Source of the DNA: an uncultured virus (IMG/VR IMGVR_UViG_3300026549_002379)
Lineage: Duplodnaviria; Heunggongvirae; Uroviricota; Caudoviricetes
Length of the DNA: 64,000 nt
Strand: one strand, 5' to 3'
Virus record (IMG/VR): IMGVR_UViG_3300026549_002379
Part shown: positions 3,896-39,135 of the stretch, one piece after another
Numbering within the stretch: position 1 is the first letter of the stretch
Layout: each line of letters starts with the position of its first letter
The notes under the pieces: model-generated
What the model saw: the letters and a program-made list of their open reading frames with translations, nothing else
Told to the model about the DNA's origin: nothing
Databases searched by the model: none
Made by a program: the position numbers and the translations under genes

Positions 3896-3931
3896 GGCTC
3901 GACCTCCTTTAATCAATTACACATTTACACA

Positions 3932-3960
3932 ATTATACATCATAGAGACGTATTTGTCCA
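3932..3960 (-). promoter_or_regulatory. Putative sigmaA promoter for RHH-hsdR-hsdM
   Basis: TGGACA-N17-TATAAT on the minus strand, overlapping tandem 8-bp repeats. Confidence 0.55.
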
Positions 3961-3985
3961 TACGGAACACGGCTCTGACCTGCGG

Positions 3986-4126: not shown

Positions 4127-4128
4127 CG

Positions 4129-14023: not shown

Positions 14024-14344
14024 TTATTCCACTGCCACGTCACCTTCGGCATCCAGTTCCCTGAACCTGCGGTTCAGAACGTCGGAAGCCGAGAACTTGA
14101 ACACAACGTAGTCAGGCACTTCGCCATGACCCTCGAACTGTACCGGATGACCCTTGTGCCTCTGCAGGTAAAACGAGCCGAACCCGGTTATCGTCAAAGT
14201 CGAACCGTCAGCGACAATGTTCTTGGTGCGGTCAACGCACGCATTGAACACCTTCGTGACGACGTCGACTGGCATGTCCACTTCCTGGGCAACGTCGGCA
14301 AGGAACTGTTTCTTCGTCACCCTTGCCTTGTCATTCATCGTCAT
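14024..14344 (-). CDS. Divergent HU/IHF-like DNA-binding protein
   Basis: VTKKQFLADVA...LTITGFGSFYLQRHKGH...VPDYVVFKFSASDVL; promoter TTGATT-N17-TACAAT at 14465-14437. Confidence 0.8.
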   Translation of the reverse strand: MTMNDKARVTKKQFLADVAQEVDMPVDVVTKVFNACVDRTKNIVADGSTLTITGFGSFYLQRHKGHPVQFEGHGEVPDYVVFKFSASDVLNRRFRELDAEGDVAVE

Positions 14345-14507
14345 ACGTCCTTTCGTATACTTGACCTTCCAATCGTCTTGCAGCCATGCCCTGCCGCACC
14401 GTGTGCGACCCAGCCAACCGGGATGCCTGCAAGATGATTGTATCTCATATATGCTCAAAAATCAAGCGTTTTAGGACAAATGACGCGTTGACCCTAACAG
14501 TGCGGCC

Positions 14508-19994: not shown

Positions 19995-22900
19995 TTAGTC
20001 CACAAGGCCCTCACCGGACTGCTTGGACATCTCCTTGGCCTTGCGCTCGATGTCCGAGACGTCAATGCCATCACGCGTCTTCTGCTGGCGCTTGTGTCCG
20101 TCCTCGAGCGTGTCGCTCTTCGTAAACGCACGCATCGTGCGTCCCTCGGCACGCTCGTCGCCGGCTGCACGCTGCTCTGCCAGACGCTCGTTCGCACGCA
20201 TCTTGTTCGGCATGAACTCATGGTCGCAACGACCCTCGAAGAGGTCCATGCCCTTGCCATCGTTCGCATCGGCGATGTCGCAAAGCGTCTGGAAGTTACC
20301 ACCATAGGCCATACGGTCCAGAGGAGCCACCAGGTCCTTGCGTACGCTCTCATCCTCGATGTTGCGCATCACGCCGTTATCGTCTGCCATCACATCGGCA
20401 ACCTGCTTCAGCCACTTCTCGTTGATGGACACGTTCAAGCCATTGTCCGCCGTGGAGCTAGTGTACATGTCCCTGAAGGACTTGACCCACTCATCCCTCG
20501 TCGCAAGGGACGGCTTTCCGTCACCATCCCTGGCAACCTGCCACTGATTCTTCTCGTCACGACGAACCAGATATCCACGCCACAGGTTGCGTACCGGCGA
20601 CTGAAGCAGCCGATACTTCACCTCTGCCTCCTCGGCACTGTGCTTGACCTGCAGGAGCGATTGCGTAACAGGACGCGTCAGCTCCAGAACCGCCGTCGGA
20701 CACTCATTACGAAGCGCCGACATCGCTCTCTGCGAATAGCCGCCACCGATGCCCGTACCGAACGACTTCGTAGCCGTTGCGTACATGACATCCTCCTGGT
20801 CCTGACGCGTCGCAAGCGTATGGCCGGTGTCGCGAATCTTCGAGTAATCTATTGCGTCCGCGCCCTTGTCATCAATGGCAAGTCCTGCCCACTTTGCATA
20901 GGTGCGAACCTTGTTGTAGTTACCCTTTGCCCCGGTCTCGACGCAGGCCTCGACCACTGACTGGATGTGCTCCTGCACGCCATCGAAGCGAATGTACGAG
21001 GTTCCGCACTTGCCACTGAACGCCTTGTGATACGCGTCATTCAGCCGCTGCACATAGCCTTCCTTGATATCATCGTCCAGGTCAGCCCATGCAGGCACCG
21101 CATCGTCGCGCTGGGCATTGTTCAAATCACCGATAATGCCCTCGAACTCGCTCTTCAGCGACGGGTCATTGTGCTCGGCAACCTTGACGTCCAGCGACTC
21201 CTGGAGACCAAGCTCCATGTTGCCATGCTCGTCTGCCGCACCGTAGTCCAGCAGATTCTCCTTGATGGAGAACAGGTGCTCCGCCTCTGCCTTCGCACGA
21301 GGGTCATGCAGATTGACAACGGCAACGGTATCGCCATCGAAGTCGCCATCGAACGGCTTGTCAACCGCAGGATTGATGGACACGCCGGTAAGCGAGTCAT
21401 CAATCTTCACGCGCATATAACGAACGCCGGAGTCACGCAGAACAGGGTCACGCCAAATCAGCGCCTTGTCGCCGTCCTTCAGACCGATGGTGTCAGCCAT
21501 CACGCGACCGATGGCAATCTCGTCGATATCCAGACGCGGGTCCTCAGACCAGATGGACGTAGCCGAGTTCGGCATGCGGTGTCCCATGATGTCGTCACGG
21601 AAGATGTTATGCTTTCCCTCGAACTGACGGGAAGCCACGCCATCCATAATCACGTCGTACTGAGACTGGGCGTCGCTCTGGCACTCCGCCATCTTAGCCT
21701 CGTCACCGTGCGCCTGTGCATCACGGTAATTGCAGGCATCCATGAAGATGCGCTCGTACTGATGCGTCCAGTCATGCGTCGTGGACGTACCGTCCTCGAA
21801 CGTCTGACCGCTGCGCAGATAAGAGCTCATGACAGGAAGACCCCAGGTCACCTTGTCATCGTTCACGCGCTGCGTGCTCGCGTCCGTATGACGATGCACG
21901 GTCGTAGGACGGACATAGGTGCCATCCTTTCTTGTATAGCCCTTGCGCGTCCACTCCTCTGCCTTGTAGACAACGTCCGTATGACCGTCGTTCAGCGGAG
22001 GCAGCGGGTCACCCGTCTTGTACTTCAGCTCGAACGGCAGCTCCATGATGCCGCCCTCGAACATGACCTTGTCATGATACTGGCGGGTCATCTCCCTGGT
22101 ATCCAGTGTCATGCCTGACTTCGTCTCATGATAGACCAGCTCGGGCATCTCGAAGACCTTGCGCTTCTCGCCCTCATGAGGCTCGTATCCGCGATGGATG
22201 CGGCCGGTTTCGTCGATGTCCAGACCACACGTAATCAAATACTCCCTGAGGTTCGTGACAGGCGCGGAGTTCGAACCGTAGCACTCGCGCATGATGGAAT
22301 CGGCACCCTTAGAGTTAAGTGCCCACGCCAGCTGGGCGGACGCCTTACGACCACGGCCCTCGGCCAGCTCCTCATCATCATAGATATGCGTCTTCGTATC
22401 CGCCGACTTATCGGTGATAATCATGTTCAGCTCGCCAAGGGCACCCTTCAGCGTCTCGCCATCAGGCGACTTCAGGTCACTGACCTCGCCATCCATAATC
22501 TCGCGCATTGCTCCTGCGTTGAAACGCGAAGGCGCAGAGAACGGAGCCATGACGACATCCATGTCAGGGTTGGCCTTGAACCATGCCCATTGCTCGTAGA
22601 TGCCCTCCTTGCGGGCTTCCTCCTCGGACATGTCAGGGTCAACGACCAAGGACACGACGCCCTTGTTGCCATGCATGTCGGAAATCTTGTCGCCCTTGAC
22701 GAGACCGCGCAGCTGGCCGCTGCGGTTCCGCATCTTGTTCGCCTCGGCGAAACGCTTGGACACGACCATGCCGTCGTCCATGTTCCATCCGCCGAAATCC
22801 ATCAGCGCAACCTTCGTCTTCTTCGTAATCGAAGAGGCCTGTGTGATATTCGAGAACGCCATGTTCTGACGGTCGAACGGGTCATAGGACGCATACTGCA

Positions 22901-25661
22901 TTATCGGATGCGCCATGATGGCACACCTCGCGTTCTTGTCAGCCGACGGATGAATGAAGCCATTCTCGTCCACATGCGTGCCTTCCACCAGATACCGCAG
23001 GGTGCCCTGGTTCGTCGTCGTCGCCGTGGAGGCTATCGGGTCGAAGTATCCATCGCTCGCCTCGTTCATGACGGCCATGTTGCGACCGCCGGTCAGTGCC
23101 GGAGCATCCGTACCGTTCGTATTGGCAACATCCAGAAGACCACGCTCCATCTGATACTGCATGTACAGTGTGGAGCCGTCGCGAATGTCGTTCGAATAGC
23201 GAACACGCTGAGACTCCGTCTTCACAATCGCGTCAATCATGTCCTGGGACATGCCCTGCTCGCGATACTGCTGCTCGAAATCAAGGTCATGCCTTGCGTC
23301 ATACAGACCGCGATACGCGCCATTAAGAGACGTCGGAACGCCAAGCGCATCGCCGCCCTTGCGATACCAGGAAATGTCAGTACGAACCTGATAGGCAATG
23401 GCCTCGCGCATCGTCTGCTCATAGCCACGAAGTCTCGTGCGCTCTTCGACGGACTTGTGCTCGCCAGGCTTCTGCGGCATGATGTTCGCCTCATAGCCGG
23501 GAACGAAGGCATAGTTATCGGACGCGTTGTAACCAGTCGCAACAACGCCGCGGGCGTCAGGCTCGAAAATCTGGCCAAGCTCGCCTTCGACATGCTCCGT
23601 CTGGGCACTGCTCTGCGTCGGCGTCAGCTCGCCCGACCAGCGCACGATGCCATGGCCGTCAATGCGAATGCCGGCATCAGGCCCGTCGAACATAACGCCG
23701 TTCTGCTCCAGACTCGTGCGAATCGCACCGTACATGCTCTGCATGAACGGCGACGTCTTCGTGCTCATATCCACAGAACCGGGGAAGTCGAACTTCACGA
23801 GCTTGTCGCGCACCTGGTCGCAATAGAAGTTGTCTCCACGCACATCGTCCTTGTCCATGCCAAGGATGCGCATGGCCTTCACGATATCGTCCGTGTTCCG
23901 ATACTGGTTGAAACCGTTCGTGTTGTACTGTGCCACGCCGACAGGATTGAAACGCGTGCCATCCGGCCCCTTCTCATAGGTGCCGATGTTGGCCTCCACG
24001 CAATCCGCCGCATGGGCACGGATGATTTCCGCAGGAGTCATCCCTGCGCTGTCGTACATCTTGGACTGCAGGTTCACCTGCGTCAGCCCCGCGTCGACCA
24101 CGTTCTCCGTCTCGTACTCGCCTGCCTCGGAGAGCTCCGTCAGGAACTCCTCCTCGTCGACGCCAGGACGAAGCAGCGTCGTCCGACGACCTTCCAGAAG
24201 GTCGATATAGGACGACTGAATTGCCGCGATGTTCGGGTCGCCAGAGAAAGTCGGAGCCCAACCATCCTCGGTATGATGAGCCTCCCAGTCTGCCACCAAT
24301 GCATCGGCACCAAGCGCCTCGGCATATGCCCGACGGGCGGACGTCACGGCACCGCGCAGATACTCGTCAGCCGCCTCCGGCGTCAACATCGACGTCGTGG
24401 CCGAATTGCCGTTCTTTCTGAGCATCGTCACGGCATAGTTGCCATCCTTCTTGTACATCGCCGAATAGCCTGCTCCATGATAGACGGAATTTGCTGCCAC
24501 CCGGCGGCCCTTGCCGTTGATGATGGTCTCGCGACCTGCCTCTCCGACATAGCCCCTGCCATCACCACGCGGCACCTGCTCGCCAAGAGCGAACCTCACG
24601 AGCTGCAGAGACTCCTCAGCCGTTGGAACATAGGTCTTAGCACGTCTGCTGGTAGCCGACTCACGCTCCGTCGTACTGAACGTGTACTGAGCACCGCCAT
24701 TGCGGTCGTATGCCTTGCCGATGAAGGCCTCGGAACCCTCTTTCTCAGTGACACGCACCTCGACGCGCGTACCGTCAATGCACGCCTTAATCTGGCCGGG
24801 GAACGTGTCCCTCTGGATTTTATAGGTACGGCCCTCGTCACGAAGACCCGCCAGAATATGAACACTGCGGTCCATTGCCTCACGGCGAGCTCGGACAGCC
24901 TGTGCCGAACGCGCACCAGTGTTCATGCCCTCGTTCGCCCACTGACGAACGTTGTTGTACTCGGCCTCCGTCATGTAAGGACGCAGCCGGACGACGCCGC
25001 TGATATCGTCCTCGGACATCATCATCTTGCCCGTCGGATTCACGATGATATTGCCACTCGCCGTGTCACGGACGCTGGAAATCTGCACGGTCTCGCCCGT
25101 TGCCGGGTCCATCGCCTGCTGCAGGGAATCGGCATCCTCTCCGCGAATGCCGCCCATCTGCGACCCGAGGTCCAGCACTGACGCACGGTCGGCGATACGA
25201 GGGTCATACGGCGAAATCGGATAAAAATTCCCCTGCTTGATTTCCAGGGCCCCATCCCGGTTCATCGCCTGATGAACCCATGCAACGGAATCCTTGACCA
25301 CTTTCGAAGAGCCGAAGACCCGATTCCGCTCAACAGGGCCATCTGCCTTGAAGATGTCATATCCCGGAATCTGAATACGGTTCTGCAACACCGACTTTAC
25401 CGCGCTGCATGCGGAACCAAGCGTCGCGTCGTCAAAACCATGCCTGAAGCCCTTGTCATAATTCTTGTTCTTGGCAGGGTCGTTCTGCCATGCCAGAAGC
25501 CGACGCTCGACCTCACGACGAAGCGCCCGTGCCTCTGTCGTGGTGATAAGGTCGGGCGCCTGCTTGTTGACCTCCTGCTCCATGGCATTGTAATCATGCA
25601 CAATCTGCCAGAACATGCGCTCGTACACCGCACGCGTGCAATCCTGTTTGGTAATCTTCAT
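19995..25661 (-). CDS. Single-polypeptide two-barrel (double-psi beta-barrel) RNA polymerase, beta+beta'-like
   Basis: In order: DRQNMAFSNITQA, GGWNMDDGMVVS, GDKISDMHGNKGVVS, PDMDVVMAPFSAPSRFNAG (beta-like), then WRDPVLR and NPAVDKPFDGDFDGDTVAV (beta'-like DxDGD). Confidence 0.9.
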   Translation of the reverse strand: MKITKQDCTRAVYERMFWQIVHDYNAMEQEVNKQAPDLITTTEARALRREVERRLLAWQNDPAKNKNYDKGFRHGFDDATLGSACSAVKSVLQNRIQIPGYDIFKADGPVERNRVFGSSKVVKDSVAWVHQAMNRDGALEIKQGNFYPISPYDPRIADRASVLDLGSQMGGIRGEDADSLQQAMDPATGETVQISSVRDTASGNIIVNPTGKMMMSEDDISGVVRLRPYMTEAEYNNVRQWANEGMNTGARSAQAVRARREAMDRSVHILAGLRDEGRTYKIQRDTFPGQIKACIDGTRVEVRVTEKEGSEAFIGKAYDRNGGAQYTFSTTERESATSRRAKTYVPTAEESLQLVRFALGEQVPRGDGRGYVGEAGRETIINGKGRRVAANSVYHGAGYSAMYKKDGNYAVTMLRKNGNSATTSMLTPEAADEYLRGAVTSARRAYAEALGADALVADWEAHHTEDGWAPTFSGDPNIAAIQSSYIDLLEGRRTTLLRPGVDEEEFLTELSEAGEYETENVVDAGLTQVNLQSKMYDSAGMTPAEIIRAHAADCVEANIGTYEKGPDGTRFNPVGVAQYNTNGFNQYRNTDDIVKAMRILGMDKDDVRGDNFYCDQVRDKLVKFDFPGSVDMSTKTSPFMQSMYGAIRTSLEQNGVMFDGPDAGIRIDGHGIVRWSGELTPTQSSAQTEHVEGELGQIFEPDARGVVATGYNASDNYAFVPGYEANIMPQKPGEHKSVEERTRLRGYEQTMREAIAYQVRTDISWYRKGGDALGVPTSLNGAYRGLYDARHDLDFEQQYREQGMSQDMIDAIVKTESQRVRYSNDIRDGSTLYMQYQMERGLLDVANTNGTDAPALTGGRNMAVMNEASDGYFDPIASTATTTNQGTLRYLVEGTHVDENGFIHPSADKNARCAIMAHPIMQYASYDPFDRQNMAFSNITQASSITKKTKVALMDFGGWNMDDGMVVSKRFAEANKMRNRSGQLRGLVKGDKISDMHGNKGVVSLVVDPDMSEEEARKEGIYEQWAWFKANPDMDVVMAPFSAPSRFNAGAMREIMDGEVSDLKSPDGETLKGALGELNMIITDKSADTKTHIYDDEELAEGRGRKASAQLAWALNSKGADSIMRECYGSNSAPVTNLREYLITCGLDIDETGRIHRGYEPHEGEKRKVFEMPELVYHETKSGMTLDTREMTRQYHDKVMFEGGIMELPFELKYKTGDPLPPLNDGHTDVVYKAEEWTRKGYTRKDGTYVRPTTVHRHTDASTQRVNDDKVTWGLPVMSSYLRSGQTFEDGTSTTHDWTHQYERIFMDACNYRDAQAHGDEAKMAECQSDAQSQYDVIMDGVASRQFEGKHNIFRDDIMGHRMPNSATSIWSEDPRLDIDEIAIGRVMADTIGLKDGDKALIWRDPVLRDSGVRYMRVKIDDSLTGVSINPAVDKPFDGDFDGDTVAVVNLHDPRAKAEAEHLFSIKENLLDYGAADEHGNMELGLQESLDVKVAEHNDPSLKSEFEGIIGDLNNAQRDDAVPAWADLDDDIKEGYVQRLNDAYHKAFSGKCGTSYIRFDGVQEHIQSVVEACVETGAKGNYNKVRTYAKWAGLAIDDKGADAIDYSKIRDTGHTLATRQDQEDVMYATATKSFGTGIGGGYSQRAMSALRNECPTAVLELTRPVTQSLLQVKHSAEEAEVKYRLLQSPVRNLWRGYLVRRDEKNQWQVARDGDGKPSLATRDEWVKSFRDMYTSSTADNGLNVSINEKWLKQVADVMADDNGVMRNIEDESVRKDLVAPLDRMAYGGNFQTLCDIADANDGKGMDLFEGRCDHEFMPNKMRANERLAEQRAAGDERAEGRTMRAFTKSDTLEDGHKRQQKTRDGIDVSDIERKAKEMSKQSGEGLVD

Positions 25662-26176: not shown

Positions 26177-27332
26177 TCATCCCATCAACTGCCTTGCCAT
26201 AATGTCATCAAAGCGCCCGTTCGCGAACTTACGCCAGTTCTGCTGCCCGACAAGGAACCGCAGGAACTCGTCAGTCACCTTGAAGGTTCCGAACTGTTCG
26301 CCGACATTCTCATCCTCAGAGTACACACGGCTTCCCTGCTCATGCGCGGCCTCGTTCAGCTTCTGCAGCTCCGCAGAGGACGTCGCACACACGATGTACG
26401 GCTCATTATTCAGACCATACAGAGAGCCATCCCTCGTAGTAAAGAACTGATGGTCCTGCCACATGTCGCCCTTGCACTCCTGGTAGGCCTTGATGATTTC
26501 ACCATCCAGACTGTGGTTCGGATTGCCGTCGATACTGACAAAGTCCTCCTTCGCACACATGCCATGGGCATAGCGACGTTCCGACCAATCCCTCTGCTTT
26601 CCGGCCGTCTCCTGCGTAGCCTTCATCTGCTCCTCATTGTCTTCGGCCTGCTCGAAGAACGAATCGTCGTCGCGCTGACCCTCCAGGTACTGGCTGACGT
26701 CCTCGATATCATCGACACCGCCGGCGTCTTCCTGCATGGACGCATTGATGACTTCCATGATTTCGGCCGCATACAGGTCAGGGTCAAGCTGCTCGACCTG
26801 ATACTCCGTATAATCATAGATGCTCATATAAGCCTCACGAGCATCCTCTGCGGCCAGAGCCTGCTTCATACGCTTGTCAAGCATCTTGCCGAAGTCAGGC
26901 TGGTTCTTACGCACATCGAACTCCTTTGCCGAAGACAGCGTAGGAATCGTCTGGAACGTGTAGTCATGCCCAGGCTGCTTGATATCGTGCGCACGCAGAC
27001 GCCAGGACATCGGCAGGATGGTCTCGTTACGGTTCCAGATAGGCGAGTCGCCCGCACGGAACACGATGGAGTTACGCGGCGAAATGAACGCCATGTCATT
27101 GTACGAGATGACAGGCACCTCCTGTGCCGTCATCGTGTACGACGTCTTGCCCTCGTTACCGGACAGGTTCTGGAACACGGCCTCCGTGTCTCTCGTAATC
27201 GTCTTGGAGTTCGTGAACACCTTGTGCGTCGTACCAGACATCTTCTGCAGGGTATCCAGCATCGAGTCATCCGTCGACTTCAGGAAGACGATATTGCTTG
27301 TATTTCCTTGGACGACCTTATCCACGGAGTCT
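26177..27332 (-). CDS. virD4: VirD4/TraG coupling protein, exon 2
   Basis: DSVDKVVQGNTSNIVFLKSTDDSMLDTLQKMSG continues the TraG-D C-terminal motif that exon 1 leaves at QTLQQLRDVYG. Confidence 0.88.
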
Positions 27333-27999
27333 CAATGTCTCGAAAACCGAATAGAGAATCATTGAACTGTGTTTTGATGTCATCCTCGCTACGATTATTG
27401 CGACAATCCAATTCAATGAGCCGAATATGACGTTTTTCCGCATATTCTCGTTTCATACGGTCATGCTCCTGTTGGATTCGAAAATATGCCTCTCCGCCAA
27501 AGACGTCAACAGGACGATAATGCTGTTCTCCTTGACACTCAATCAAGACCCGAGTGCCGTCCTTTAATCGAACATCAAAATCGTAAGACAACAGCCCTCC
27601 GCCCGTTCCGATAAGACTCGGAAACGAACGCTGTGCCGTATAATTCAATCCGGCCTCGGCAAGCCACTCCGAAACCCTCAATTCATATTTTGAAGGTCCT
27701 TTACCACGAGCCATACTTTCAACACGAGCGCATCCGCAAGACATCGTATGACCGTTTCTAAGACTCGTTCCTCGAACAAGTACCGTTCGACCACAATCGC
27801 ATTTGCATATCCATCTGATATAACGAGTGCCTTTTTTCGTGATTTCATCATCGCCACGCGACACGACTGTCAGACTTCCGAATCGACGCCCAATCATATC
27901 TGGGATACGCAACTGTTTCTTTCGACAACCGCATGATTTCGTATGACCGTTCACCAAAGATGAACCGCGCGTGACAAATTCTTTACCGCAATCTGTCAA
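27280..27999 (-). CDS. Intron-encoded putative homing endonuclease (Cys-rich repeats + Vsr/DUF559-like nuclease domain)
   Basis: Two CG...GHTxSCGC repeats, then YDFDVRL...LIECQGEQHY...QEHDRMKREYA; lower GC than flanks; TTG start. Confidence 0.75.
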   Translation of the reverse strand: MTDCGKEFVTRGSSLVNGHTKSCGCRKKQLRIPDMIGRRFGSLTVVSRGDDEITKKGTRYIRWICKCDCGRTVLVRGTSLRNGHTMSCGCARVESMARGKGPSKYELRVSEWLAEAGLNYTAQRSFPSLIGTGGGLLSYDFDVRLKDGTRVLIECQGEQHYRPVDVFGGEAYFRIQQEHDRMKREYAEKRHIRLIELDCRNNRSEDDIKTQFNDSLFGFRDIETPWIRSSKEIQAISSS

Positions 28000-28459
28000 T
28001 AATTCTCTATTCGGTTTTCAAAGAACAGTTTCACATGTTCGCAACACATGCTCCGTGTTATATCACGGCACCCCCGTTACAGGGCGTGGACTGACTATAT
28101 GTCAACCCCGCACCGCTTTCGCGGCCGCTGAGCCACCTATTTTTCGCCGACCGCATATGCTTCGGTCGCTACAGGGACGTCATCCCTTAGTCGATGAGCG
28201 TTACCCGGCTCTTACGCTACGGGCATTCGCAACCAAACAGACCCTTGTCATCGCCGACGAGGAACCCAAACGTGATGTCAGGGCTTTTATTGCATCCTGT
28301 ACGGCATCCTCGAACTTCTTTCTGCTTTCGCTCCTTCGCGCTTGTCGTTTCCAACTACGCTGTGGCATCGAGGCTCTTGAGGCCCGTGTCAAGGTTTTAA
28401 CTGGTGTAATGATACGCACACATTACATGTACGCAGAGACTCGTCTATTTGACATCACT
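27333..28459 (-). mobile_element. Group I intron (IA-like) interrupting virD4
   Basis: P7 GACUA (28192-28188)/UAGUC (28097-28093), P4 CCUUG/CAAGG, P3 CACC/GGUG, two hairpins between P7 and P3', P8, terminal G at 27333; removal restores the reading frame YG-DSVDK. Confidence 0.85.
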
Positions 28460-31323
28460 CCATACACATCGCGCAATTGCTGCAGAGTCTGCAGAATCAA
28501 TGTGAACTGCTGCTCCTGGCCAAGGCCGATGGAAAGCATCGTCTCGAAGCCACTGATGCCATGCCCCTCAGACTGCAGGTTGCCCAACTCGTCGAGCATG
28601 AACCTCGTCTTGTACAAAGGCTTCTGGTTGCCCTTCGTCATGTACGACTGGTCGAAGTTCAGGTCGACCAGCTGCTTGATGAGAATCAGAATCAGCTTCG
28701 CGTACTTCATCAGATGAGGCGGCGTGACCAGGAACACGACCTTCGGCTTCTCGGAGTACCGGAGCATGAACTGCGTAATCGCATGTGCCCGCACGGTCTC
28801 CTTATGAGCGTTGGCCGAGATGTCCTTCATCTTGACCGTCTTGAACGTCACATGGCCCTTCTTGTAGACGACCTTGCCGTCCTTGCTCTTCACAGGACGA
28901 AGCTCCGTCATAATGCCGTCGCGCACAATCTTCTCGCCGAGGACAGGGTCCTTGACATAGGCGCGGCCATCAAGCGTGGTCGCATAGGACTTCTGGAACC
29001 TGAAATAGAACGTACGCACCAGCTGGCTTGTCTGAGGATTGCGAATCTCGCACTTCAGATAGGCTACATCCGTCGGGAAGATTCCCTTGAAATAGAACCT
29101 CGCCCAACCAGCACGGTTAATCAGGTCCTCATGATAGAAGTCCTTGCCCATAGGCTTCGTGAATCCCCTGTCCTCATATGCCTGCCACACGCACTGCATA
29201 CCGGTCAGGTGATAGCGCTTGATGAAATCGGCGCTCATGCGGAAGCCGAGACGACGCGGGAACGACAGACCCGCCAAGTCCACGTTCTGACTCGGCGTGC
29301 CACTGGTCAAAGTGGAAATCGTCGGGTCGGTGAAGAAGGACATGGCCGTAATGGCAATTCCGTAGACGGAAGCCATCATCTTCTCAGCGCCGGCCATAGA
29401 ACGCAGAGCATTGTTCGCATTGCTCACGAGCGTACGCATCTGGTTCTTAGGCAAGGCATCCGTCGCATTGAAGTACAGGGTCAGCAGGTCAATCTCCGGC
29501 TTGTCCTCCCAGAGCTTCGACTGTGCCGTCGCCTCCTGGAGCTTCGCCTCGTACTCATCGTCCGAGAGCGAATCGAACTCATGATTCTTGGCCTTCTTCG
29601 TGAACTCCAGGGCGGGGTTCTTCAGCTTCTTGGACGTCAACTGAACGAACAGCTGATAGCAGTTATACAGCGTGACATGTCCCCACATCGCGTCGAGCTT
29701 CGTCTCCAGCGTCTTCGGGTCCATGTGCGTCCGCTCCGCCATATTACGAAGCTCGGCCTCTTCCTCAAGGTAGTAGTCGATGAGACCGTAGGCAGCACGC
29801 TTGAACGCATTGTTTGCGGCATTCGGCCACACAGGGTCGTCGCCGCCATCCAGCGGGAAGAACACGTCCGCGATATTCTCGACGTACATTGCCACCTTCG
29901 TGAAGTCGCCCTCACGCGCCGACTGCGCCGCCATCATCAACGGATTGTAAATATCCGTGTTCATGGCGTTAATCAGATTGAACTGCACGACCTGGAAATC
30001 ACGATACGTCGCGGCAACATAGAACTTCTGCAGAAGCTCGCCCTTAGGGTCGTTGATAACGATGTTGTTCGGCCTGCGCTCGCGAAGCCACATGTCAATC
30101 GTCGGCTCGATGACCGTCTGGCCCTTACCTGCACGAGTGATAGCCAGGACCATCGTGTTGACCGGGTCGATGTCCACGAGATAGGCGCCGGCAGGACGCT
30201 GCGTCTCGTACTCCGGAATCACCCAGTCGCCGTTAATCATGTCAGCCACCGTGTCATAGCCCTTCAGCTTGTCACGGTTGGCGTTCTTCGGATTGTAGGG
30301 AATCTTCGTCGGGTCGTAATATTTACGAAGCGTCTTGTCCTTCGGAAGCCCGGAAGCCTCGAACAGGGACTCCATGAAATCCTTGTCGAACATCGGCTTC
30401 GTCTCCATCAGGGCATTGCCGTCATCATCCCGAAGGATTTCGCCCTTCAGGTACTCGATGTCGCCGTCCTCGTCAAGGATGTCCTTGTCCGCACGCCTTG
30501 ACACCTGTACAGGGTTGATGCCCTTGTTCAGAAGAGCCACATGCGAAATCATGCTGGACGGCTGGACGCTCGAATGGGCACCCGCATCAGGGAACCAGTC
30601 GAACTTCCGCATGACCTCCTCAGGCAGGGCGATATGCTGGTCGTTATGGTACTGGTTGATGTCTGACGTGTCGTTCATCATGTTCTGTGCAGCCAGGTTA
30701 CGCATCATCTTCGTATATACGATAAGAAAGACGATGAGCCACGTAATCAGCGACAAAAGGAACTTCACCAGACGGAACGTCCCGAACTCCTTCCAGAACG
30801 CAGCAAGACCGCCATTGTCCTGCTTCGACGAACTTCCGGACGCGTTCTTTGCATTCTGCATGTCAACATACCACTGCGGTTTGGGAACCTGGTCTATACT
30901 GCCCCACGTTTCTGAAGACAACGTATGCTTATCAGGGTCAGTTATCTGATAGCAATACACCATTCCTCCCCTGGTCGTTTGAATCGTATAGTCGTTCGGC
31001 TGCGAAATCGTATTCACATCCGTAAGGCCATACTCCTGCTTCAGCTCATCGGTCTGGCTGCTCACAACGACTCCGGTGCTCCCCATCGTTCCCGTATCGC
31101 TCTGAAACGCGCCGATTGCCAGGGCACCCGCTGACGCGAGAAGCCACATCACCAGCGCCGCGAACAGTGCAACCACAACGGAGAAGATGATACGCCACGT
31201 CGGCGTCTGCTTCTCCTGAATGGTCGAACGTTCCAGCTGCTGGTCTTCGTACACGTCACGATACTGCATCGTGTCGGCATTGCTCTGCTTGCTGAGCCTC
31301 TGCCAATTTGTCTTCTTGGCCAT
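28460..31323 (-). CDS. virD4: VirD4/TraG coupling protein, exon 1 (spliced product about 1339 aa)
   Basis: Two N-terminal TM helices, Walker A-like AITRAGKG, NDPKGEL, Walker B FMLDELGNL, LILQTLQQL. Confidence 0.92.
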
Positions 31324-31643: not shown

Positions 31644-33935
31644 TTACTTTGCTGCATCGGTACCGTCGGACTGCTGCGTGTCAGTAGTCGTCGAATCCGT
31701 GGTGGTCTTGCTGGACGTCGAGGACTTGGAATCCTTCTCGACGTTGTCCATGCGGTCATTGAACTCCTGCGAAATCGCACTCGACGCCTTCTCGGAACCA
31801 AAGCTCAGGTTCAGCTGCGTGCCGACGAACGCACCGACGCACAGGGAAGCGATTGCGACCACGATGCAGAGCGCAACCATAACCATGTTCGAACGCTTGT
31901 GCGATGCGATGATGTCGTCGCACTTGCTCTGCCATGCCGCCTTCTGGTCATTGGCCTCGGCAAGACGATTGCTGAACTCATCGTTCTTAATCTTGTCCAG
32001 TTCCGCGAACTTGTCAACAAGAACATCGTACTTGCTCTGCTGCTCGTTCAGACGAGACTGCATCTCCTTGACACGATTATCGCACTCAAGCTGAATATCG
32101 GCGATGCGCTTCTCATTGTCACGCTTGATATGCTCGATGTCCGCCTGCATCTCGACGCGGCGCTGCTCGAAACCTGCCTTCTCAGCAGCCAGACGCTCCG
32201 TGTACTCCTTCATGACACGGTCGGCCTTCTCGCCCTGAGCGAGCTCCTCAGCCAGAGCCTTGTCATGCGCGACGTCATCCTTGCGATGCTCGTCAAGGAA
32301 CGTATTGATACGGTTGCGCCACTCATCGTACTGAGCCTTCTCATCGGCAAGCATCGTCGTGTACTCTTCGGACAAAGTCTTCAGGGTCTCGATGATGCCG
32401 TAGTCCAACAGGCGCTTTGCCTCATCGCGACGCTCGACGTTCATGTCGCGGATGCTGGACTGACGGTCCGCCTCGATGCGGTTCGCCGTATCCGTCTCAA
32501 CACGCATCATCTCGTCGCTATGCTGACGGCCGTAACGCTCACGATACTGCTGCTTTGCGGCATGCGCGGCGTCCTCACCTACCTGCTCAAGCATGGAATC
32601 CCACGCCTTGGTCAGCTCATCACGGCGACGTCCGACGATGTCTGCCATGCCGGCCTTGCTCTCGACGTAATGCTGGGCGATTGCCGCAGACATACGTCCG
32701 TACTGGGTCGTCGGGTCACTGGTGTCCAGGTCGCGCTGAATCTTCTCACAATGCATGGAAATCAGCGAGTAGTACTTCTCACGAAGCTGGAGCAGATTCT
32801 GCTGATGCAGACGACGCATGAACATGTTCGCGTCACGGCTCATCTCGTTCAGGTACTGGTTCAGCCAGCCCTCTCCACGGCTCTCGTTGAACGGAACATA
32901 AGGGTTCTCAGCCATGAACTGGGCATCGAACGGCGAACCGTCAACCTCCAGACCAAGCTCGTCAGAATAGAAGCGGAACTTCACTGCCTGACGGACCTGC
33001 TCCTCGTCGACGACAGGACCCTCGTCCTCTTCCGTCTCCTCATCGCCCGTACCAGCCGGCTCTGCGGCATCCTCCGCATCGCCATCGTCTGCCACGGCAT
33101 CCGATTCAGTCGCATCATCCTCGACAGGCTCATCCGCGACGTCATTCTCAGACTCGTCATCGAAACCGTCCCCGGACGGAACCTCGTCCGTGAAATCATT
33201 CTCGTCGATGACCTCGCCCTCGTCGTCAATCACATCGTCGGTGCCGTCGCCGTCATCGGGGTCGATGACCTGCGTCTCGTCAGCGTCACTGGCATTGTCT
33301 TCGACATCGTCCTCAGGCTCGTCCATCTGCGCCCACTCGACACCGTTGTCAGCCAGAAGGCCATAGACGTCATCGTCGCCGGTCGCGATGCCAGAAGCCT
33401 GCTCATAGGTAATCGGGAACCCGAGGCGCTCAATCTCGCCCTCCTCATTCACGATGACCGTCTCGTACGGAGCATCCGTCAGAAGCGGGAACTCGTCCAT
33501 GGCAGCCAGTGTGTTCGTGTTCGGGATGATGACAAGCTCCTCTGCCTCCAACAGGTCGGCAGGAACATACACGGCAATACTGCCGGAATTGATGAGCTCG
33601 ACAACAGAACCCTTGTCCTCGTCACGCATCGCCTTCTTGTCAAGTCCGCCGATATCGGCAGCCTTCAGCAGCATGCCGACAAAGACATCCTCACCGTCCT
33701 TCTGTACAACGAAGTTCGTGTTCGCCTTCATCGTCTCGACAGCGGACTCGGTGACAGATTCGGAAATCAGACCGGCCATGCTGTCCTTGGCACGCTTCTT
33801 CTTTTTCTTCTTGTTTCCTATGTCGTTAGCGACTGCGCCATCGTTCGCATGACGACCCTTCATGTGCTTCCCTTCGAGAGAAGCATCGGCCGAGGCATCC
33901 GCCTCGTTCTTGTTCTTGCGGTTAAAAAGACCCAT
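31644..33935 (-). CDS. Hypothetical conjugation-region protein (acidic linker, coiled coil, C-terminal TM)
   Basis: 763-aa ORF with clear compositional domains. Confidence 0.75.
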   Translation of the reverse strand: MGLFNRKNKNEADASADASLEGKHMKGRHANDGAVANDIGNKKKKKKRAKDSMAGLISESVTESAVETMKANTNFVVQKDGEDVFVGMLLKAADIGGLDKKAMRDEDKGSVVELINSGSIAVYVPADLLEAEELVIIPNTNTLAAMDEFPLLTDAPYETVIVNEEGEIERLGFPITYEQASGIATGDDDVYGLLADNGVEWAQMDEPEDDVEDNASDADETQVIDPDDGDGTDDVIDDEGEVIDENDFTDEVPSGDGFDDESENDVADEPVEDDATESDAVADDGDAEDAAEPAGTGDEETEEDEGPVVDEEQVRQAVKFRFYSDELGLEVDGSPFDAQFMAENPYVPFNESRGEGWLNQYLNEMSRDANMFMRRLHQQNLLQLREKYYSLISMHCEKIQRDLDTSDPTTQYGRMSAAIAQHYVESKAGMADIVGRRRDELTKAWDSMLEQVGEDAAHAAKQQYRERYGRQHSDEMMRVETDTANRIEADRQSSIRDMNVERRDEAKRLLDYGIIETLKTLSEEYTTMLADEKAQYDEWRNRINTFLDEHRKDDVAHDKALAEELAQGEKADRVMKEYTERLAAEKAGFEQRRVEMQADIEHIKRDNEKRIADIQLECDNRVKEMQSRLNEQQSKYDVLVDKFAELDKIKNDEFSNRLAEANDQKAAWQSKCDDIIASHKRSNMVMVALCIVVAIASLCVGAFVGTQLNLSFGSEKASSAISQEFNDRMDNVEKDSKSSTSSKTTTDSTTTDTQQSDGTDAAK

Positions 33936-33972: not shown

Positions 33973-35733
33973 TTACCTATGCCACTCGCCGACCACCACA
34001 TGGGCCCGCGATTTCAGCATATGCTTGTTCTCGGCCGTCATCGTTCCCTTGACGGTCACGCCGATAGACGTCACGAACGGATGCGAATTGATGTACGCTG
34101 CGATAGGCGTCGTCACATCCGTCTCCAGCTGCGACATGACAGCACGTGCGCCGCCGGCATTCGAGTCGGTGGTCAACTGGTCAGTAACCAGATAGTCGAC
34201 GACCTTGTCCGCCACATACAGCTTGACATTGTGCTTCATCATGACATCGTCGCTCAAACACTTCAAGCGCATCTTGACGATGCCCTTCATCGTATTCTCG
34301 GACAAAGGCTGGAACGGCACGATGCAATCAATACGACCCACCAGCTCAGGCGGGAATCTGTTGTCTCCCGTCGTCTCGGAAATCGAACGCTTGATGAGCT
34401 TCATGTACTCGTCCTGCAGCTTCGTGCCATCACCAGTGTCATCCTCGCCGTACTTCGCGACGGTGGCATAAATCTCGGATGCGGCATTCGTCGTCATGAC
34501 GATGTACGCATTCGTGAACGACACCTCGCGATTGTTCCGGTCGGACAAACGACCGTCATCAAGCACCTGCAGAAGGATACGCGTGACAGGTGCGCACGCC
34601 TTCTCCACCTCATCCAGAAGGATGATGGAATACGGATGCTCCCACACGCGCGTGGTCAGCGAATCACGGAAACGCTCCAGCGAATCAGGGTTCGCATACT
34701 CGGTCATGTCGAACCGAAGCAGACTGCGGTCATCATCGAACAAGATTTTCGCAAGCTGCTTGCACATCTCCGTCTTGCCAACACCAGTGGAACCGGTGAA
34801 CAGGAACGTTGACATCGGCTTCGTCTTATCATTGAGGTCGGCAACGCAAATCTGAAGCCTGCTCTCAATGGCCTTCGTAGCCAGATGCTGCGACAGCACC
34901 CTCTGGTCCAGCCGCTTCTTAATGGTCGTCGCGTCGACCTTGAAGTCGACGTTCACGCCCTCCGTCTCACGGATAACGTCCGCCAGAAGTGCACGGTCAA
35001 GTTTGCGCCCCTCCGAACGAGCCCATCCGACCATGGCGTCAAGCACCAGAATGGACTTACGTGGCTGTGCGTTCGCCGGAATATAACGATTCGTGTACTC
35101 GTAAATCAGCTCGAACAACGAGTCGTTATAGAACTGCGAACCCACTCCGTAGCGGTTGGCCATGCCACGGAGAATCGACACCGTCATCGCCTTGTCCGCC
35201 TGCTTGAGGTTGATTCTCTGAAGACGTTCGACCAATGGCTGGTTGGGCGAAATGTACTTGCGGAACTCCTCATAGGTGGTGGCGGCAACGACACGAATGC
35301 CACGCGTGCCTGAATCGGCCAGAAGCGGCTTCAACGCCTCGACGGCCGCCGCAGACAGCTGCACAATCTGATGGAACTCGTCGATAAAGAGGACGAGCTC
35401 GTGCTCCTCCTGCTGGCCATACCGTGCGGCCTCGTCAAAAAGAGCCTTGAGCTCTGCGGCAAGCTCGTTCGGGTCGTTCAGGTTCGCAATCATGCGAGCC
35501 AAGTCGACCTCGATGTATATACGCTTCGTATCCTTCAGCATCGCGCCCTGTACCAGCGCCGTCTTACCGGAACCGGCTTCGCCAAGAAGAATGACGTTGC
35601 AAAGCTCAGGCCTCATGAACGCTGCCAGGAGCGCACGTATCTCAAGGTCACGCCCGAGAATCTCACGCTCCGCCTTCTTGACGCGGTGGGTGAACTGCGC
35701 GAGCATAGGATACTTTTTCTCATCGACATTCAC
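33973..35733 (-). CDS. Clp/Hsp100-family AAA+ ATPase lacking N- and M-domains
   Basis: GEAGSGKT / LFIDEFH / ATTYEEFRKYI and GSTGVGKTE / LLDEVEKA / RFPPELVGRID; GTG start after AAGGAGG. Confidence 0.9.
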   Translation of the reverse strand: MNVDEKKYPMLAQFTHRVKKAEREILGRDLEIRALLAAFMRPELCNVILLGEAGSGKTALVQGAMLKDTKRIYIEVDLARMIANLNDPNELAAELKALFDEAARYGQQEEHELVLFIDEFHQIVQLSAAAVEALKPLLADSGTRGIRVVAATTYEEFRKYISPNQPLVERLQRINLKQADKAMTVSILRGMANRYGVGSQFYNDSLFELIYEYTNRYIPANAQPRKSILVLDAMVGWARSEGRKLDRALLADVIRETEGVNVDFKVDATTIKKRLDQRVLSQHLATKAIESRLQICVADLNDKTKPMSTFLFTGSTGVGKTEMCKQLAKILFDDDRSLLRFDMTEYANPDSLERFRDSLTTRVWEHPYSIILLDEVEKACAPVTRILLQVLDDGRLSDRNNREVSFTNAYIVMTTNAASEIYATVAKYGEDDTGDGTKLQDEYMKLIKRSISETTGDNRFPPELVGRIDCIVPFQPLSENTMKGIVKMRLKCLSDDVMMKHNVKLYVADKVVDYLVTDQLTTDSNAGGARAVMSQLETDVTTPIAAYINSHPFVTSIGVTVKGTMTAENKHMLKSRAHVVVGEWHR

Positions 35734-35921
35734 GTCGGTATACCTCCTTCCTTGTTTTAACTCATTTATGAACCTATAATAACACATCCTGCAAAGTAAC
35801 ACAAGACCGAAACGCTTGAAAATCAGCACAGACAATCAAGACAAAAAGAAAAAGCCGTCCGCATCACTGCGAACGGCCTCTTCTTTAGGCTGGGAGAATC
35901 CCGTGTGGCGTTCTAACTACG

Positions 35922-36937: not shown

Positions 36938-39052
36938 TCAGCTTCCGAACGCCGCGGACTGTACGGTAGCCTGAACGGCCAGCTTCATGTCCCGCTCGAA
37001 GTCATCGCCAAGGCTCGTCGTATGAACGACCTTCGCATGACCGCCGGAGCCCGTCTTGGCAGATGGAAGCACGGCCTGCCCGGACTGGAACCTGTCGGCC
37101 ATGTCCTTCATGACCTGTACGTCCTTCTCAGGCATGTTTCTTACGAAATCGCCCTGCCCCGTGTCTTCCAGGTACGCACGCGCGGCTTCGAAGACCTCGT
37201 GGCGTCTGTTCGCCACACGGACGAAGGCATCGACGTTAGGCTTGCTCACAGGTGCGTCGAACGGGAAGTCGTAGCCCAGATGATGCAGGTCCAGAGCCTT
37301 CACGTCATCGAAGTCGTACGCGGGCTGATGCCTAACGCGTGCACCGTTTTCGTCCGATTCGAACGTCATGCCCAAATCGGCCAGATGCAGCTTGAAATCG
37401 TCGACCTTGCGGTCATACGTCGCAAGCATTCTGTCAAGCCTCTGCTCCAACACCTGCGGAGCCGTCACGGCAAAACGTCCGCCACGCTGACCATAGACAC
37501 GCATACCATAATCTTCCGCAGAATCAGGACTGCGACGCCGCATGCTCCTGTCCGTTATCATCGCGTCCATGTTCACAATCGAATCGCGATACTTCATGAG
37601 GTCGTCGAACTCGCCCTCATATTCCTCGTCCGGCGGCAAAAACGCCAGGAAATGCTGGTATTTCGCCATCAGCATCGCATTGTACTCCTCCTCGAACTTG
37701 TAGAAATCGTACAGCGGTTTCGAGTCCTCGGATGCCTCACCGGCTTCCTCGGCCTCCTCATAATGCACGCGCGCATCATGATAGCGCTTGTGCTCCTTCT
37801 TATGGTAATCGAGACGCGACGAGTACGAACGCAAACGGAACCCGAACTCCAGCATCGGGTCCGTCATGGCATCCTCGGCCATATCCGTGTATTCCATGCT
37901 CATGATATCGAGCATCGGCGTCGTCGTCCGCATCCGCGACTCCGGCACGTCCTTCAGAATCGAGTACACGCCATTCATGCAGTCCGTGACCAGACGCTCG
38001 CGGCCGTTCGCCACAAGCTCACGATACTCGCGACCCGTCAAATCCTCCCTCATCTGCCGCGAACGTGCGTACTCACCAATCTCACGCATGGCCTTGTCAT
38101 AGCCCGAGTCAGGCTGGGCAAGCACCTGCTCCACGAACTCGCGCGTGATGGCATTCGCCTTCCGCATCTCCTTGCGGTTCGTGTTCGCACGCCACAGACG
38201 CCTATCATCCGGCAGACACGCCATCAGAAGCTGCGGCGTACCGTTCTGCGCCATGACCTGATGCGTGTACTTCTTGATGAAGCAACGGGCATTCCGCCTG
38301 TCATAGGCCACGCTTGATGCCAGCATCTTCACAGGTTGCATCTCGTCCAGCTGCATGTCGATGCCACGCCGAAGCATACGCTTGTCATCCTCGTCAAGCT
38401 TCCCCCTCTGCGTGCCATCAGGCATCACACGGCCACGGCCCTTGTCCACCATGCAAAGGTGACAGTGCACATGCATGGTATCCACCTGGATGACGCCGAC
38501 CCATTCCAGGTCGTCGAAGCGCCTTGACATGCGGTCCATGCCATGCATGATGGCCAGTCGCAGCTTCATCTGGTCGATGTTGCCACGATAGTCACCACGC
38601 CTCCTGGGCTCAAAATCCTCATCCACAATGCCGGTCCGCTTCAGGTACGGCAGGTCGAAGGACACGACGGTCTTCAGTACCGTCTTGCCGGACTCGAACT
38701 GCTTCTGGATGTCCTTCGACACGGCCTTGACCTTGCGATGGCTCATCGAGATGTCACCCATGTCACCATCACCCGTCGACCCGAAGGCGACACCGCCAAA
38801 CCCCTGCGCATCGCGCATGCCCTGCTTGATGCGTCCGACGGAATCGTACCTCTCCGTGGCCTCACGCCGCGCCATGTACCGCGTCACATAGGCATCATTA
38901 TCATCATATCGAACGGGCGTCAGGTCCTCTGTCGCACCGTTTCTCGCCATATATCGTATGACATAGTCTCCCGGCGTGTTCCCGCGGGAACCGCCGTCCA
39001 CCGTCGGAACGGAAAACTCGTTCACGACGACAATGTCCTGCTTCAAACCCAT
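36938..39052 (-). CDS. HUH relaxase (MobP2/MobL-like)
   Basis: N-terminal YVIRYMAR and YVTRYMAR tyrosine motifs, TVVSFD, WVGVIQVDTMHVHCHL HUH motif. Confidence 0.85.
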   Translation of the reverse strand: MGLKQDIVVVNEFSVPTVDGGSRGNTPGDYVIRYMARNGATEDLTPVRYDDNDAYVTRYMARREATERYDSVGRIKQGMRDAQGFGGVAFGSTGDGDMGDISMSHRKVKAVSKDIQKQFESGKTVLKTVVSFDLPYLKRTGIVDEDFEPRRRGDYRGNIDQMKLRLAIMHGMDRMSRRFDDLEWVGVIQVDTMHVHCHLCMVDKGRGRVMPDGTQRGKLDEDDKRMLRRGIDMQLDEMQPVKMLASSVAYDRRNARCFIKKYTHQVMAQNGTPQLLMACLPDDRRLWRANTNRKEMRKANAITREFVEQVLAQPDSGYDKAMREIGEYARSRQMREDLTGREYRELVANGRERLVTDCMNGVYSILKDVPESRMRTTTPMLDIMSMEYTDMAEDAMTDPMLEFGFRLRSYSSRLDYHKKEHKRYHDARVHYEEAEEAGEASEDSKPLYDFYKFEEEYNAMLMAKYQHFLAFLPPDEEYEGEFDDLMKYRDSIVNMDAMITDRSMRRRSPDSAEDYGMRVYGQRGGRFAVTAPQVLEQRLDRMLATYDRKVDDFKLHLADLGMTFESDENGARVRHQPAYDFDDVKALDLHHLGYDFPFDAPVSKPNVDAFVRVANRRHEVFEAARAYLEDTGQGDFVRNMPEKDVQVMKDMADRFQSGQAVLPSAKTGSGGHAKVVHTTSLGDDFERDMKLAVQATVQSAAFGS

Positions 39053-39135
39053 TCCATCACCTCCGTACACGAAAAAGGGCGACGGCCGGCTCTACATGCC
39101 AGACCGCCGCCCAGGCCCTCACGCAGGTCGTGACG

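Follow-up and report, generated by a model that had tools for sequence, protein, structure and literature searches.

We analysed a DNA window of 64,000 nucleotides (nt), which is the whole stretch of IMG/VR record IMGVR_UViG_3300026549_002379 and has a G+C content of 56.0%. Judged by its genes, the window represents a Gram-positive-type conjugative element. It carries a MobL-type relaxase, a VirD4-type coupling protein, VirB4-like pieces, topoisomerase III, an excisionase, and a sortase with an adhesin (Table 1). A conjugative host had also been proposed by an earlier reading made from the letters and their translations (hereafter, the sequence-only reading). The subject of this report is P0001, an intact, ATG-started open reading frame (ORF) of 1888 codons on the minus strand (19995..25661), with the word AGGAGG 10 nt 5' of its ATG. 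The product is predicted to be a single-chain RNA polymerase with two catalytic barrels, one of the beta type and one of the beta' type.

Catalytic residues and predicted fold of P0001

The sequence-only reading had claimed that P0001 contains beta-like motifs and then beta'-like motifs in one chain. When the translation was rechecked by regular expressions, all six quoted motifs were located. The beta-like ones were DRQNMAFSNITQA at amino acid (aa) 930, GGWNMDDGMVVS at aa 957, the two-lysine motif GDKISDMHGNKGVVS at aa 990 (22694-22650), and APSRFNAG at aa 1043. The beta'-like ones were WRDPVLR at aa 1403 and the metal-binding DFDGD at aa 1440 (21344-21330). Such a set lies far beyond chance. 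The order was borne out by Pfam, in which RNA_pol_Rpb2_6 matched aa 980-1077 (expect value (E) 2.9e-11, 43.5 bits, cut-off 23.4) and RNA_pol_Rpb1_2 matched aa 1394-1465 (E 6.7e-10, 39.9 bits, cut-off 25.3). At E <= 1, the only further Pfam match was a weak one to DUF1717, and Pfam RdRP was not matched.

With NCBIfam, short matches to the rpoB, rpoC, and rpoA1 models were observed below threshold, with 14-39 bits against cut-offs of about 800-5400. The full-length rpoB/rpoC equivalog cut-offs were not reached (best 39.3 bits against 819, and 25.5 against 896). A phmmer search of P0001 against PDB sequences gave archaeal Rpo1N (E 4.7e-6), RPC1 (E 1.7e-5), and the P23-45 tape-measure-fused polymerase (8h2n; E 1.9e-5). 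When a profile of 22 homologues was used, RPC1 was matched at E 2e-12.

Subsequently, the catalytic residues were placed by hhalign, which aligned aa 1273-1473 with E. coli beta' 240-493 (94% probability, E 1.1e-7) and aa 985-1052 with E. coli beta 1058-1112 (89% probability, E 2.2e-6). Because of this placement, K992 and K1000 correspond to beta K1065 and K1073, and the aspartate triad corresponds to beta' D460, D462, and D464. In addition, R1404 and P1406 are the counterparts of R425 and P427 in cellular beta'. According to a passage of PMC2919709, eight residues are invariant in all two-barrel polymerases, namely the three Asp of DxDGD, an Asp and two Lys of the other barrel, and the Arg and Pro of RxP. 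The P0001 family keeps all eight: D963, K992, K1000, R1404, P1406, D1440, D1442, and D1444 were invariant in 22 of 22 aligned members (33-50% identity). The catalytic set claimed earlier, with both of its conserved lysines, was thus found to be complete. The same alignment showed further invariant columns at D930, R931, D962, R1046, N1048, and D1405, over the whole of DFDGD (D1440-F-D-G-D1444), and at G1577-A-K-G, K1632, G1635-T-G, S1643-Q, T1666-Q, and K1673-H.

One deviation from cellular enzymes was observed next to the metal loop. The residues D1438-G1439 (21345-21350) precede DFDGD, whereas cellular enzymes have N-A at this position (N458-A459 in E. coli beta'). D1438 is at least 90% conserved in the family, G1439 is invariant, and NCgl1702 of Corynebacterium glutamicum has both residues. 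We take N458 of E. coli beta' to be a ribose-contacting residue; with D1438 in its place, the nucleotide-sugar selectivity could differ.

The aa 700-1888 part was modelled with AlphaFold2 using 30 sequences, and the model (residues counted from aa 700) had a mean predicted local distance difference test score (pLDDT) of 85.2 and a predicted template modelling score (pTM) of 0.82. Both double-psi barrels expected from the sequence-only reading were seen in the predicted structure with AlphaFold2 and VIA. The best Foldseek matches in the PDB were bacterial beta' chains (E 3.3e-12). When the Foldseek list was realigned with VIA, yeast RPC1 gave Z 17.7 with a root-mean-square deviation of 3.3 over 484 residues (model 452-1123 on chain 13-1420), and the best 50 matches all had Z of at least 16.9.

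A wide VIA search of 48,161 representative structures, which was independent of Foldseek, gave the same picture. Largest subunits scored Z 13.4-16.8 on model 451-1140, and Mycobacterium tuberculosis beta' scored Z 13.7 for the beta' core. The matches on model 1-432 were plastid beta (Z 12.5), Pol I A135 (Z 12.3, 367 residues), and Xanthomonas beta (Z 12.2, 354 residues), and the PhiKZ beta-type barrel (7ogp_C) gave Z 12.8 on model 215-393. Pure double-psi barrel structures had Z 8-10 on model 664-791. Several single chains were aligned across both barrels: QDE-1 (Z 13.3, 485 residues), P74 gp62 (8f5m, Z 11.7), P23-45 gp96 (8h2m, Z 11.3), RDR2 (Z 10.9), and gp66 of the crAss-like phage phi14:2 (6vr4, Z 7.1). 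PolD DP2 was found at Z 8.5. In BFVD, the best matches were giant-virus and phage subunits of the Rpb1/beta' type (E 3e-10 and weaker); none of the best 50, of which 16 were nameless, was named YonO or SPbeta.

Taken together, the model indicates that P0001 holds two double-psi barrels in one chain, the beta type and then the beta' type, and that its second half is a compact copy of the whole beta'/Rpb1 core. In this half, a modelled 32-residue helix (aa 1619-1650) is followed by the invariant TQSLLQVKH. Only 26 residues lie between D963 and G990, compared with 248 between D814 and G1063 of E. coli beta, and the flap (sandwich-barrel hybrid) insert is absent from the beta-type barrel of P0001. 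The first 720 residues were also modelled (pLDDT 84.9, pTM 0.67). No solved-fold match was obtained for this N-terminal module (best E 0.37 with Foldseek, best Z 5.0 with wide VIA), and 24 columns of it were invariant in 30 sequences. The C-terminal tail was disordered in the model, with a pLDDT of about 30. It contains a short motif, FTKSDTL in P0001 and V-x-K-R-D-V in most relatives, with one invariant Asp.

Relatives of P0001 are numerous. A word-indexed search, in which 8000 candidates were scored, gave 142 relatives at E <= 1e-3. The best 120 of these 142 had 1807-2141 aa and were 33-50% identical to P0001 near full length, with the exception of one 99% twin. Those with a name were called 'hypothetical protein', apart from one 'RNA polymerase Rpb2', and the named sources were Actinomycetota, e.g., Streptomyces, Arthrobacter, Kribbella, Amycolatopsis, and Promicromonospora. 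An exhaustive phmmer search with aa 700-1888 against 1.84 billion cluster representatives (clusters at 50% identity) gave 636 representatives at E <= 1e-3, 440 at E <= 1e-10, and 380 at E <= 1e-30. Full-length entries were mostly about 1780-2555 aa, and among the matches listed a few fell below or above this range (772-2884 aa). In 56 of the 58 loci of at least 20 kb, the P0001-type frame was open at 1836-1909 codons, the exceptions being L034 and L050. No relative was detected in 50,697 phage records at E 1e-5. P0001 itself was traced by its 31-mers in 20 public runs from 11 studies, most of them from bovine gut and four of them skin metagenomes; the window may derive from two of these runs.

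The conserved neighbourhood of the polymerase gene

From 63999 down to 5916, almost every gene is encoded on the same strand, and the gaps between genes are short. The features of the window are collected in Table 1.

Table 1 Features of P0001 and of the surrounding window. Empty cells, nothing given; E, expect value.
Feature	Position	Strand	Basis
P0001, predicted 1888-aa single-chain two-barrel RNA polymerase gene, NCgl1702-like	19995..25661	-	Pfam, profiles, alignment, model
N-terminal ~700 aa of P0001, family-specific, confident fold, no solved-structure match	23562..25661	-	model and fold searches
Predicted beta/Rpb2-type double-psi barrel, ~aa 914-1092; D962/D963, K992, K1000, R1046; no flap insert	22386..22922	-	fold match
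GDKISDMHGNKGVVS two-lysine motif, K992/K1000 = E. coli beta K1065/K1073	22650..22694	-	hhalign, alignment
Predicted beta'/Rpb1-type double-psi barrel, ~aa 1363-1489; WRDPVLR (R1404, P1406) and metal loop	21195..21575	-	model, Pfam Rpb1_2, hhalign
DFDGD metal triad D1440, D1442, D1444	21330..21344	-	alignment, hhalign
Whole beta'/Rpb1-like half, aa 1151-1838; GAKG (aa 1577, funnel motif), TQSLLQVKH (aa 1666)	20148..22211	-	model, alignment, NCgl1702 funnel row
Disordered C-terminal tail with conserved short motif, then basic stretch	19998..20144	-	pLDDT ~30, alignment
79-codon ORF between coupling-protein gene and P0001	25668..25907	-	no family match
Coupling protein, C-terminal 382 aa, separate ORF	26177..27325	-	tblastn against relatives
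Coupling protein (VirD4/TraG type), N-terminal 966 aa	28423..31323	-	Pfam T4SS-DNA_transf, E 2.4e-18
763-aa protein between ATPase and coupling protein	31644..33935	-	no Pfam/NCBIfam match; Atlas: unnamed clusters only
ClpB/ClpA-like double AAA+ ATPase	33973..35835	-	Pfam AAA_2, E 9.1e-38; NCBIfam ClpB, E 7.1e-84, below cut-off
MobL-type relaxase	36938..39070	-	Pfam MobL, E 1.2e-53
Two ORFs downstream of P0001, 397 aa and 846 aa	16246..19995	-	no family match
HU-like DNA-binding protein	14024..14458	-	Pfam Bac_DNA_binding, E 2.5e-07
Second HU-like protein	12883-13176		Pfam
Tn916-type excisionase	8209-8493		Pfam
P4-family primase/helicase-type protein	6406-8205		TIGR01613, 144 bits (cut-off 108.7)
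Type I restriction enzyme R subunit (HSDR_N, SWI2_SNF2, T1R_D3-like, EcoR124_C)	704-3631	-	E down to 2e-54
VirB4-like pieces	51374-54175		NCBIfam
Topoisomerase III	54288-56483		Pfam/NCBIfam
Class B sortase	58065-59054		NCBIfam
Seven-repeat T-Q ester adhesin	59188-63999		Pfam

The proteins of the window were compared by tblastn with 61 loci of named genomes, using a flank of 10 kb. Both parts of the coupling protein were found upstream of the polymerase gene on the same strand in 58 of the 61 loci, with identities of 54-68% for the N-terminal part and 41-59% for the C-terminal part. The remaining three were two 5.5-kb contigs lacking upstream DNA and L055, a contig of a metagenome-assembled genome with another context. 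The ClpB-like ATPase was present in 57 loci (up to 64% identity), and the weakly conserved 763-aa protein was also present in 57 (23-39%). Downstream of the polymerase gene, the HU-like protein was found in 49 loci and a weakly similar 846-aa protein in 14. The relaxase was matched in six loci, a count limited by the 10-kb flank. The polymerase gene has a constant place in a conjugation module of Gram-positive type, in which the order is ClpB-like ATPase, 763-aa protein, coupling protein, polymerase, and HU-like protein.

The sequence-only reading had placed P0001 directly after virD4. P0001 does lie downstream of the coupling-protein gene, but the 79-codon ORF stands between them and the coupling-protein gene itself is cut by an insert of 1.1 kb. 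The same reading had noted no alpha, omega, or sigma gene nearby, and indeed none of these families was found by Pfam (E <= 0.01) among the 50 window ORFs of at least 60 codons. On the other side of P0001, the ATG of the 397-aa ORF overlaps the TAA of P0001; after another 18 nt comes a second ATG in the same frame, this one with AAGGAG.

In IMG/VR, the coupling protein was upstream in 26 of 26 family-bearing loci (L066-L091, 67-230 kb). These loci come from one dataset, and one of them, L079, is the same contig range as the genome locus L004; hence they do not count as independent cases, and it is unlikely that they are viruses. The 26 contigs, filed as viral genomes, are probably conjugative elements rather than phages. 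Furthermore, 13 plasmid records carry a relative of P0001. On the Staphylococcus plasmid SAP020A, a coupling protein of 1289 aa is followed by two genes and then by an 1807-aa homologue in which both Pfam domains are present; further along are topoisomerase III and a lysozyme/CHAP protein. On the Lactococcus plasmid pJM4A, by contrast, a 2382-aa homologue adjoins polysaccharide genes.

The coupling protein is a single ORF of about 1350 aa in most relatives and is split in the window. A lower-G+C insert of about 1.1 kb (27326-28422) cuts its gene (26177-31323, minus strand) inside the ATPase domain. The insert ORF (27280-27999, 239 codons) has two NGHTxSCGC repeats and a PD-(D/E)xK-like motif, gave no Pfam match, and is flanked by a 24-nt inverted repeat (27342-27365 and 27996-28019). 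In contigs of four public runs labelled as RNA, the flanks of the insert were joined at 27330/28458 (27338/28458 in one run). The join was computed to be in frame, and the depth of the joined form was 149-833, compared with 10-32 for the insert-bearing contigs. All four runs also gave a 456-nt contig consisting of 28018-28443 plus its own first 30 nt, which points to a 426-nt circular or tandem form. Either RNA splicing or polymorphism in the DNA, caused by a mobile endonuclease cassette, could account for these observations. No Rfam intron family was found in the insert, for which a search at E <= 10 gave chance-level matches only.

In 14 of the 61 loci, the two tblastn matches to the coupling protein were separated at this same site by a gap of about 1.1 kb, and the frame was open throughout (1708-1756 codons). 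These were L013 (4331-9469), L014, L015, L022, L024-L026, L042, L044, L048, L054, L057, L058, and L061. When the gap region of one locus, L013, was scanned, LAGLIDADG_3 was matched at E 5.7e-11. The gap in the related loci looks like an intein where the window has a free-standing cassette.

Several features further from P0001 were also observed. Weak matches to the N- and C-terminal parts of a VirB4-type ATPase model fell on adjacent ORFs of 292 codons (E 4.8e-05) and 640 codons (E 5.2e-06), which an in-frame TAA at 53297-53299 divides; a split or broken gene and readthrough of the stop are both conceivable. The window also has a direct repeat of exactly matching 99-bp copies at 5043-5141 and 48713-48811, 43,670 bp apart and with unrelated flanks. 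The interval between the two copies includes P0001, the coupling protein, and the relaxase, but not the VirB4-like genes, the topoisomerase, the sortase, or the adhesin. The repeats could be attachment-site-like scars of an element within an element, or could result from recent recombination. Past the R subunit gene, fragments of a ParA-like frame and a ribbon-helix-helix-like frame were seen at 3632-4171. Rfam and tRNA scans of the window found nothing.

Possible roles of the polymerase in transfer

We propose that P0001 is an active single-chain, NCgl1702-like, DNA-dependent RNA polymerase that acts on element DNA in transfer, and we give this reading as a whole a probability of roughly 0.55. 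Its parts differ in strength. P0001 is very probably a real polymerase, and there is a good chance that its role is tied to conjugation. Its gene is co-oriented with the coupling-protein gene, and the polymerase would be made together with the transfer machinery. It would then synthesize RNA on element DNA during transfer, and this RNA may prime complementary-strand synthesis, may act as the earliest mRNA of the element in its new host, or may do both. Since P0001 has no flap and no sigma, alpha, or omega gene was found in the scanned ORFs, the enzyme should act without host initiation factors. An enzyme without sigma and flap has no evident means of promoter melting. Hence, the transferred single strand, which would require none, is the template that we tentatively favour, at somewhat less than even odds. 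The N4 virion RNA polymerase, the AR9 non-virion RNA polymerase, and QDE-1 are reportedly sigma-less enzymes that use single-stranded or hairpin templates.

Several findings weigh against this proposal. The element has its own P4-family primase/helicase-type gene, and therefore a priming enzyme may already be on board. The size and the full Rpb1-like core of the modelled P0001 would fit long processive transcripts better than short primers. P0001 is covered over its full length, at a likeness of at least 95%, by contigs of the RNA-labelled runs (four runs, two samples), but DNA was possibly present in the libraries and such contigs cannot show transcription. Exact 9-mers in at least three of 25 intergenic regions gave no repeated promoter-like motif, only the ribosome-binding word AGAAAGGAG (four regions) and four unrelated words (three regions each), and a repeat search of the window gave coding repeats only, mostly in the adhesin gene. 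A sigma-70-type consensus scan gave 13 sites, compared with 10.5 +/- 3.5 in shuffles. No outstanding class of intergenic hairpin was seen when 12,786 windows of 70 nt were folded as single-strand DNA; the 14 most stable non-overlapping windows were nearly all coding, and the intergenic ones were two terminator-like stems.

A terminator-like hairpin, with a 19-pair stem and a T run, was observed at 35845-35886 (minus strand), some 10 nt ahead of the ClpB-like gene; a promoter for the module that contains P0001 would not fit in between. The contigs of all four RNA-labelled runs end near the start of the ATPase gene (about 35750-35925), and the contig upstream of the insert was 1.5-2.2 times deeper than the P0001-bearing contig.

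The main rival is a donor-side transcriptase, which would read duplex element DNA from its own promoters and drive the transfer and accessory operons without host sigma. We consider it the less probable account, at perhaps one chance in a few. The full Rpb1-like core suits processive transcription, the long run of co-oriented genes would suit such an enzyme, and the contig ends near the ATPase gene are compatible with a transcription unit without proving one. YonO, which transcribes the late genes of SPbeta, offers a precedent (a passage of PMC5467207). The window, however, has no repeated candidate promoter, and the polymerase gene lies in the middle of the module, so that the host polymerase would have to read the module first. 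Moreover, a transcriptase needed only in the donor leaves the fixed place beside the coupling protein unexplained. In an extension that we regard as doubtful, the polymerase would itself be cargo of type IV secretion, as the conjugation counterpart of the injected virion RNA polymerases. The ClpB-like ATPase would unfold the polymerase, and the long coupling protein would recognise it, perhaps via the tail motif and basic stretch. The polymerase would then enter the recipient with the single strand, and transcribe and prime there at once without host sigma. The unusual length of the coupling protein (about 1350 aa), the unfoldase-type ATPase, and the disordered tail are circumstantial points in its favour. 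When the C-terminal 382 aa of the coupling protein were paired in a complex prediction with the final 110 aa of the polymerase (20 paired rows each), the scores were 0.01 and 0.00, which speak neither for binding nor against it.

Other activities were judged improbable to different degrees. Among two-barrel enzymes, PolD sets a precedent for DNA synthesis. The presence of its DP2 subunit among the fold matches and the Asp at the position of the cellular Asn, with which sugar selectivity could differ, would be compatible with a replication enzyme that makes primers or even DNA for vegetative or rolling-circle replication. Such a role is improbable, as RNA polymerases scored far above PolD (Z 13-17 against 8.5) and the polymerase gene is linked to the coupling protein, not to the primase/helicase-type gene, which adjoins the excisionase far from P0001. 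The alignment of QDE-1 and RDR2 over both barrels raises the idea of an RNA-templated polymerase of a conflict system, in defence or counter-defence. Pfam RdRP was nevertheless unmatched, each half of P0001 is nearer to DNA-dependent subunits, and no defence gene stands consistently beside the polymerase, all of which makes this idea very improbable. A catalytically dead relic with a structural or DNA-binding role is hardly credible for a protein whose catalytic residues are all invariant across the 22 diverged sequences and whose frame is intact in nearly all long loci.

Conjugative DNA relies, in the textbook view, on the RNA polymerase of the recipient and on plasmid primases for its first RNA. 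If our proposal of a polymerase acting in transfer is true, an element-encoded polymerase of the cellular type adds a new enzyme to the conjugation pathway. In Actinomycetota the polymerase stands beside the coupling protein, and a Staphylococcus plasmid provides one such case from Bacillota. The fixed place of the polymerase among transfer genes suggests a step of conjugation that has gone unstudied. If the polymerase is secreted, a sigma-free start in the recipient would widen the host range of the element.

Comparison with known polymerases

P0001 is assigned to the NCgl1702-like family, as the sequence-only reading had supposed. The kinship is based on five printed motif rows compared by eye. 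The rows, printed in a part of the supplement of PMC2919709, cover switch 2, the metal loop, the funnel, the ED motif, and the two-lysine/PSRFN block. They match P0001 and its family consensus closely, with about 30 of 45 positions identical by eye in the metal-loop row, which shares just the RxP and DFDGD cores with cellular enzymes. NCgl1702 and P0001 have in common the words WRDPV[IL]RD.GVRY, SATA[VI]W, DGDFDGD, ETGAKG, and GGWN-(E/D)DG, and the first of these, used as a regular expression, was found in 63 of 297 retrieved proteins. NCgl1702 is likewise a giant single chain (2169 aa, compared with 1888 aa in P0001) with beta-like motifs before beta'-like motifs. NCgl1702-like enzymes are described without a flap in a passage of PMC7824862, and P0001 is alike in this respect.

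P0001 is a further member of a family that has been predicted in print as a mobile-element polymerase, reportedly since 2003. The family was reportedly treated by Iyer, Koonin and Aravind in 2003 and by Iyer and Aravind in 2012. Our literature search, which did not cover these two papers, found no experiment on the NCgl1702-like family. Nor did it reveal any account of the N-terminal module, of the structural match along Rpb1, or of the constant placement beside the coupling protein, some of which the Iyer papers may cover.

YonO of SPbeta resembles P0001 in being one chain with two barrels and a DxDGD triad, encoded by a mobile element and with no sigma-type partner known. It is an experimentally shown single-chain two-barrel RNA polymerase, and the same passage of PMC5467207 describes its homology as limited to a few residues, with no detectable trigger loop. 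No sequence relation to YonO (phage SPBc2, single sequence) was detected: hhalign with the family profile gave a probability of 0.2 (E 0.38), which leaves room for a very distant link. YonO is a phage enzyme of about 840 aa, whereas P0001 is a conjugative-element enzyme with Pfam matches to beta and beta' and with a structural alignment that spans entire Rpb1 chains. As a predicted 200-kDa single chain keeping far more of the beta'/Rpb1 core than YonO, P0001 would be a useful model for asking which parts of the multisubunit enzyme serve which step.

Cellular beta and beta' (E. coli RpoB and RpoC) have the same order and the same catalytic residues as P0001. Unlike them, P0001 has no flap, and its N-terminal 700 aa match no beta domain. 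Fusion of the two subunits has natural parallels, since passages of PMC2919709 mention beta::beta' fusions, e.g., in Helicobacter, and describe Orf6 of the yeast killer plasmid pGKL2 as an Rpb2::Rpb1 fusion. Orf6, set beside P0001 here by description only, is similarly a plasmid-borne single chain with both catalytic subunits in the same order. It sits, however, on a eukaryotic cytoplasmic linear plasmid, and killer-plasmid enzymes keep a flap-type insert according to a passage of PMC7824862.

Finally, P23-45 gp96, a tape-measure fusion, P74 gp62, and phi14:2 gp66 share the single-chain two-barrel fold and score below cellular subunits against P0001. They are virion proteins, whereas for P0001 export is only conjectured. 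Injected phage two-barrel polymerases enter the new cell along with the DNA.

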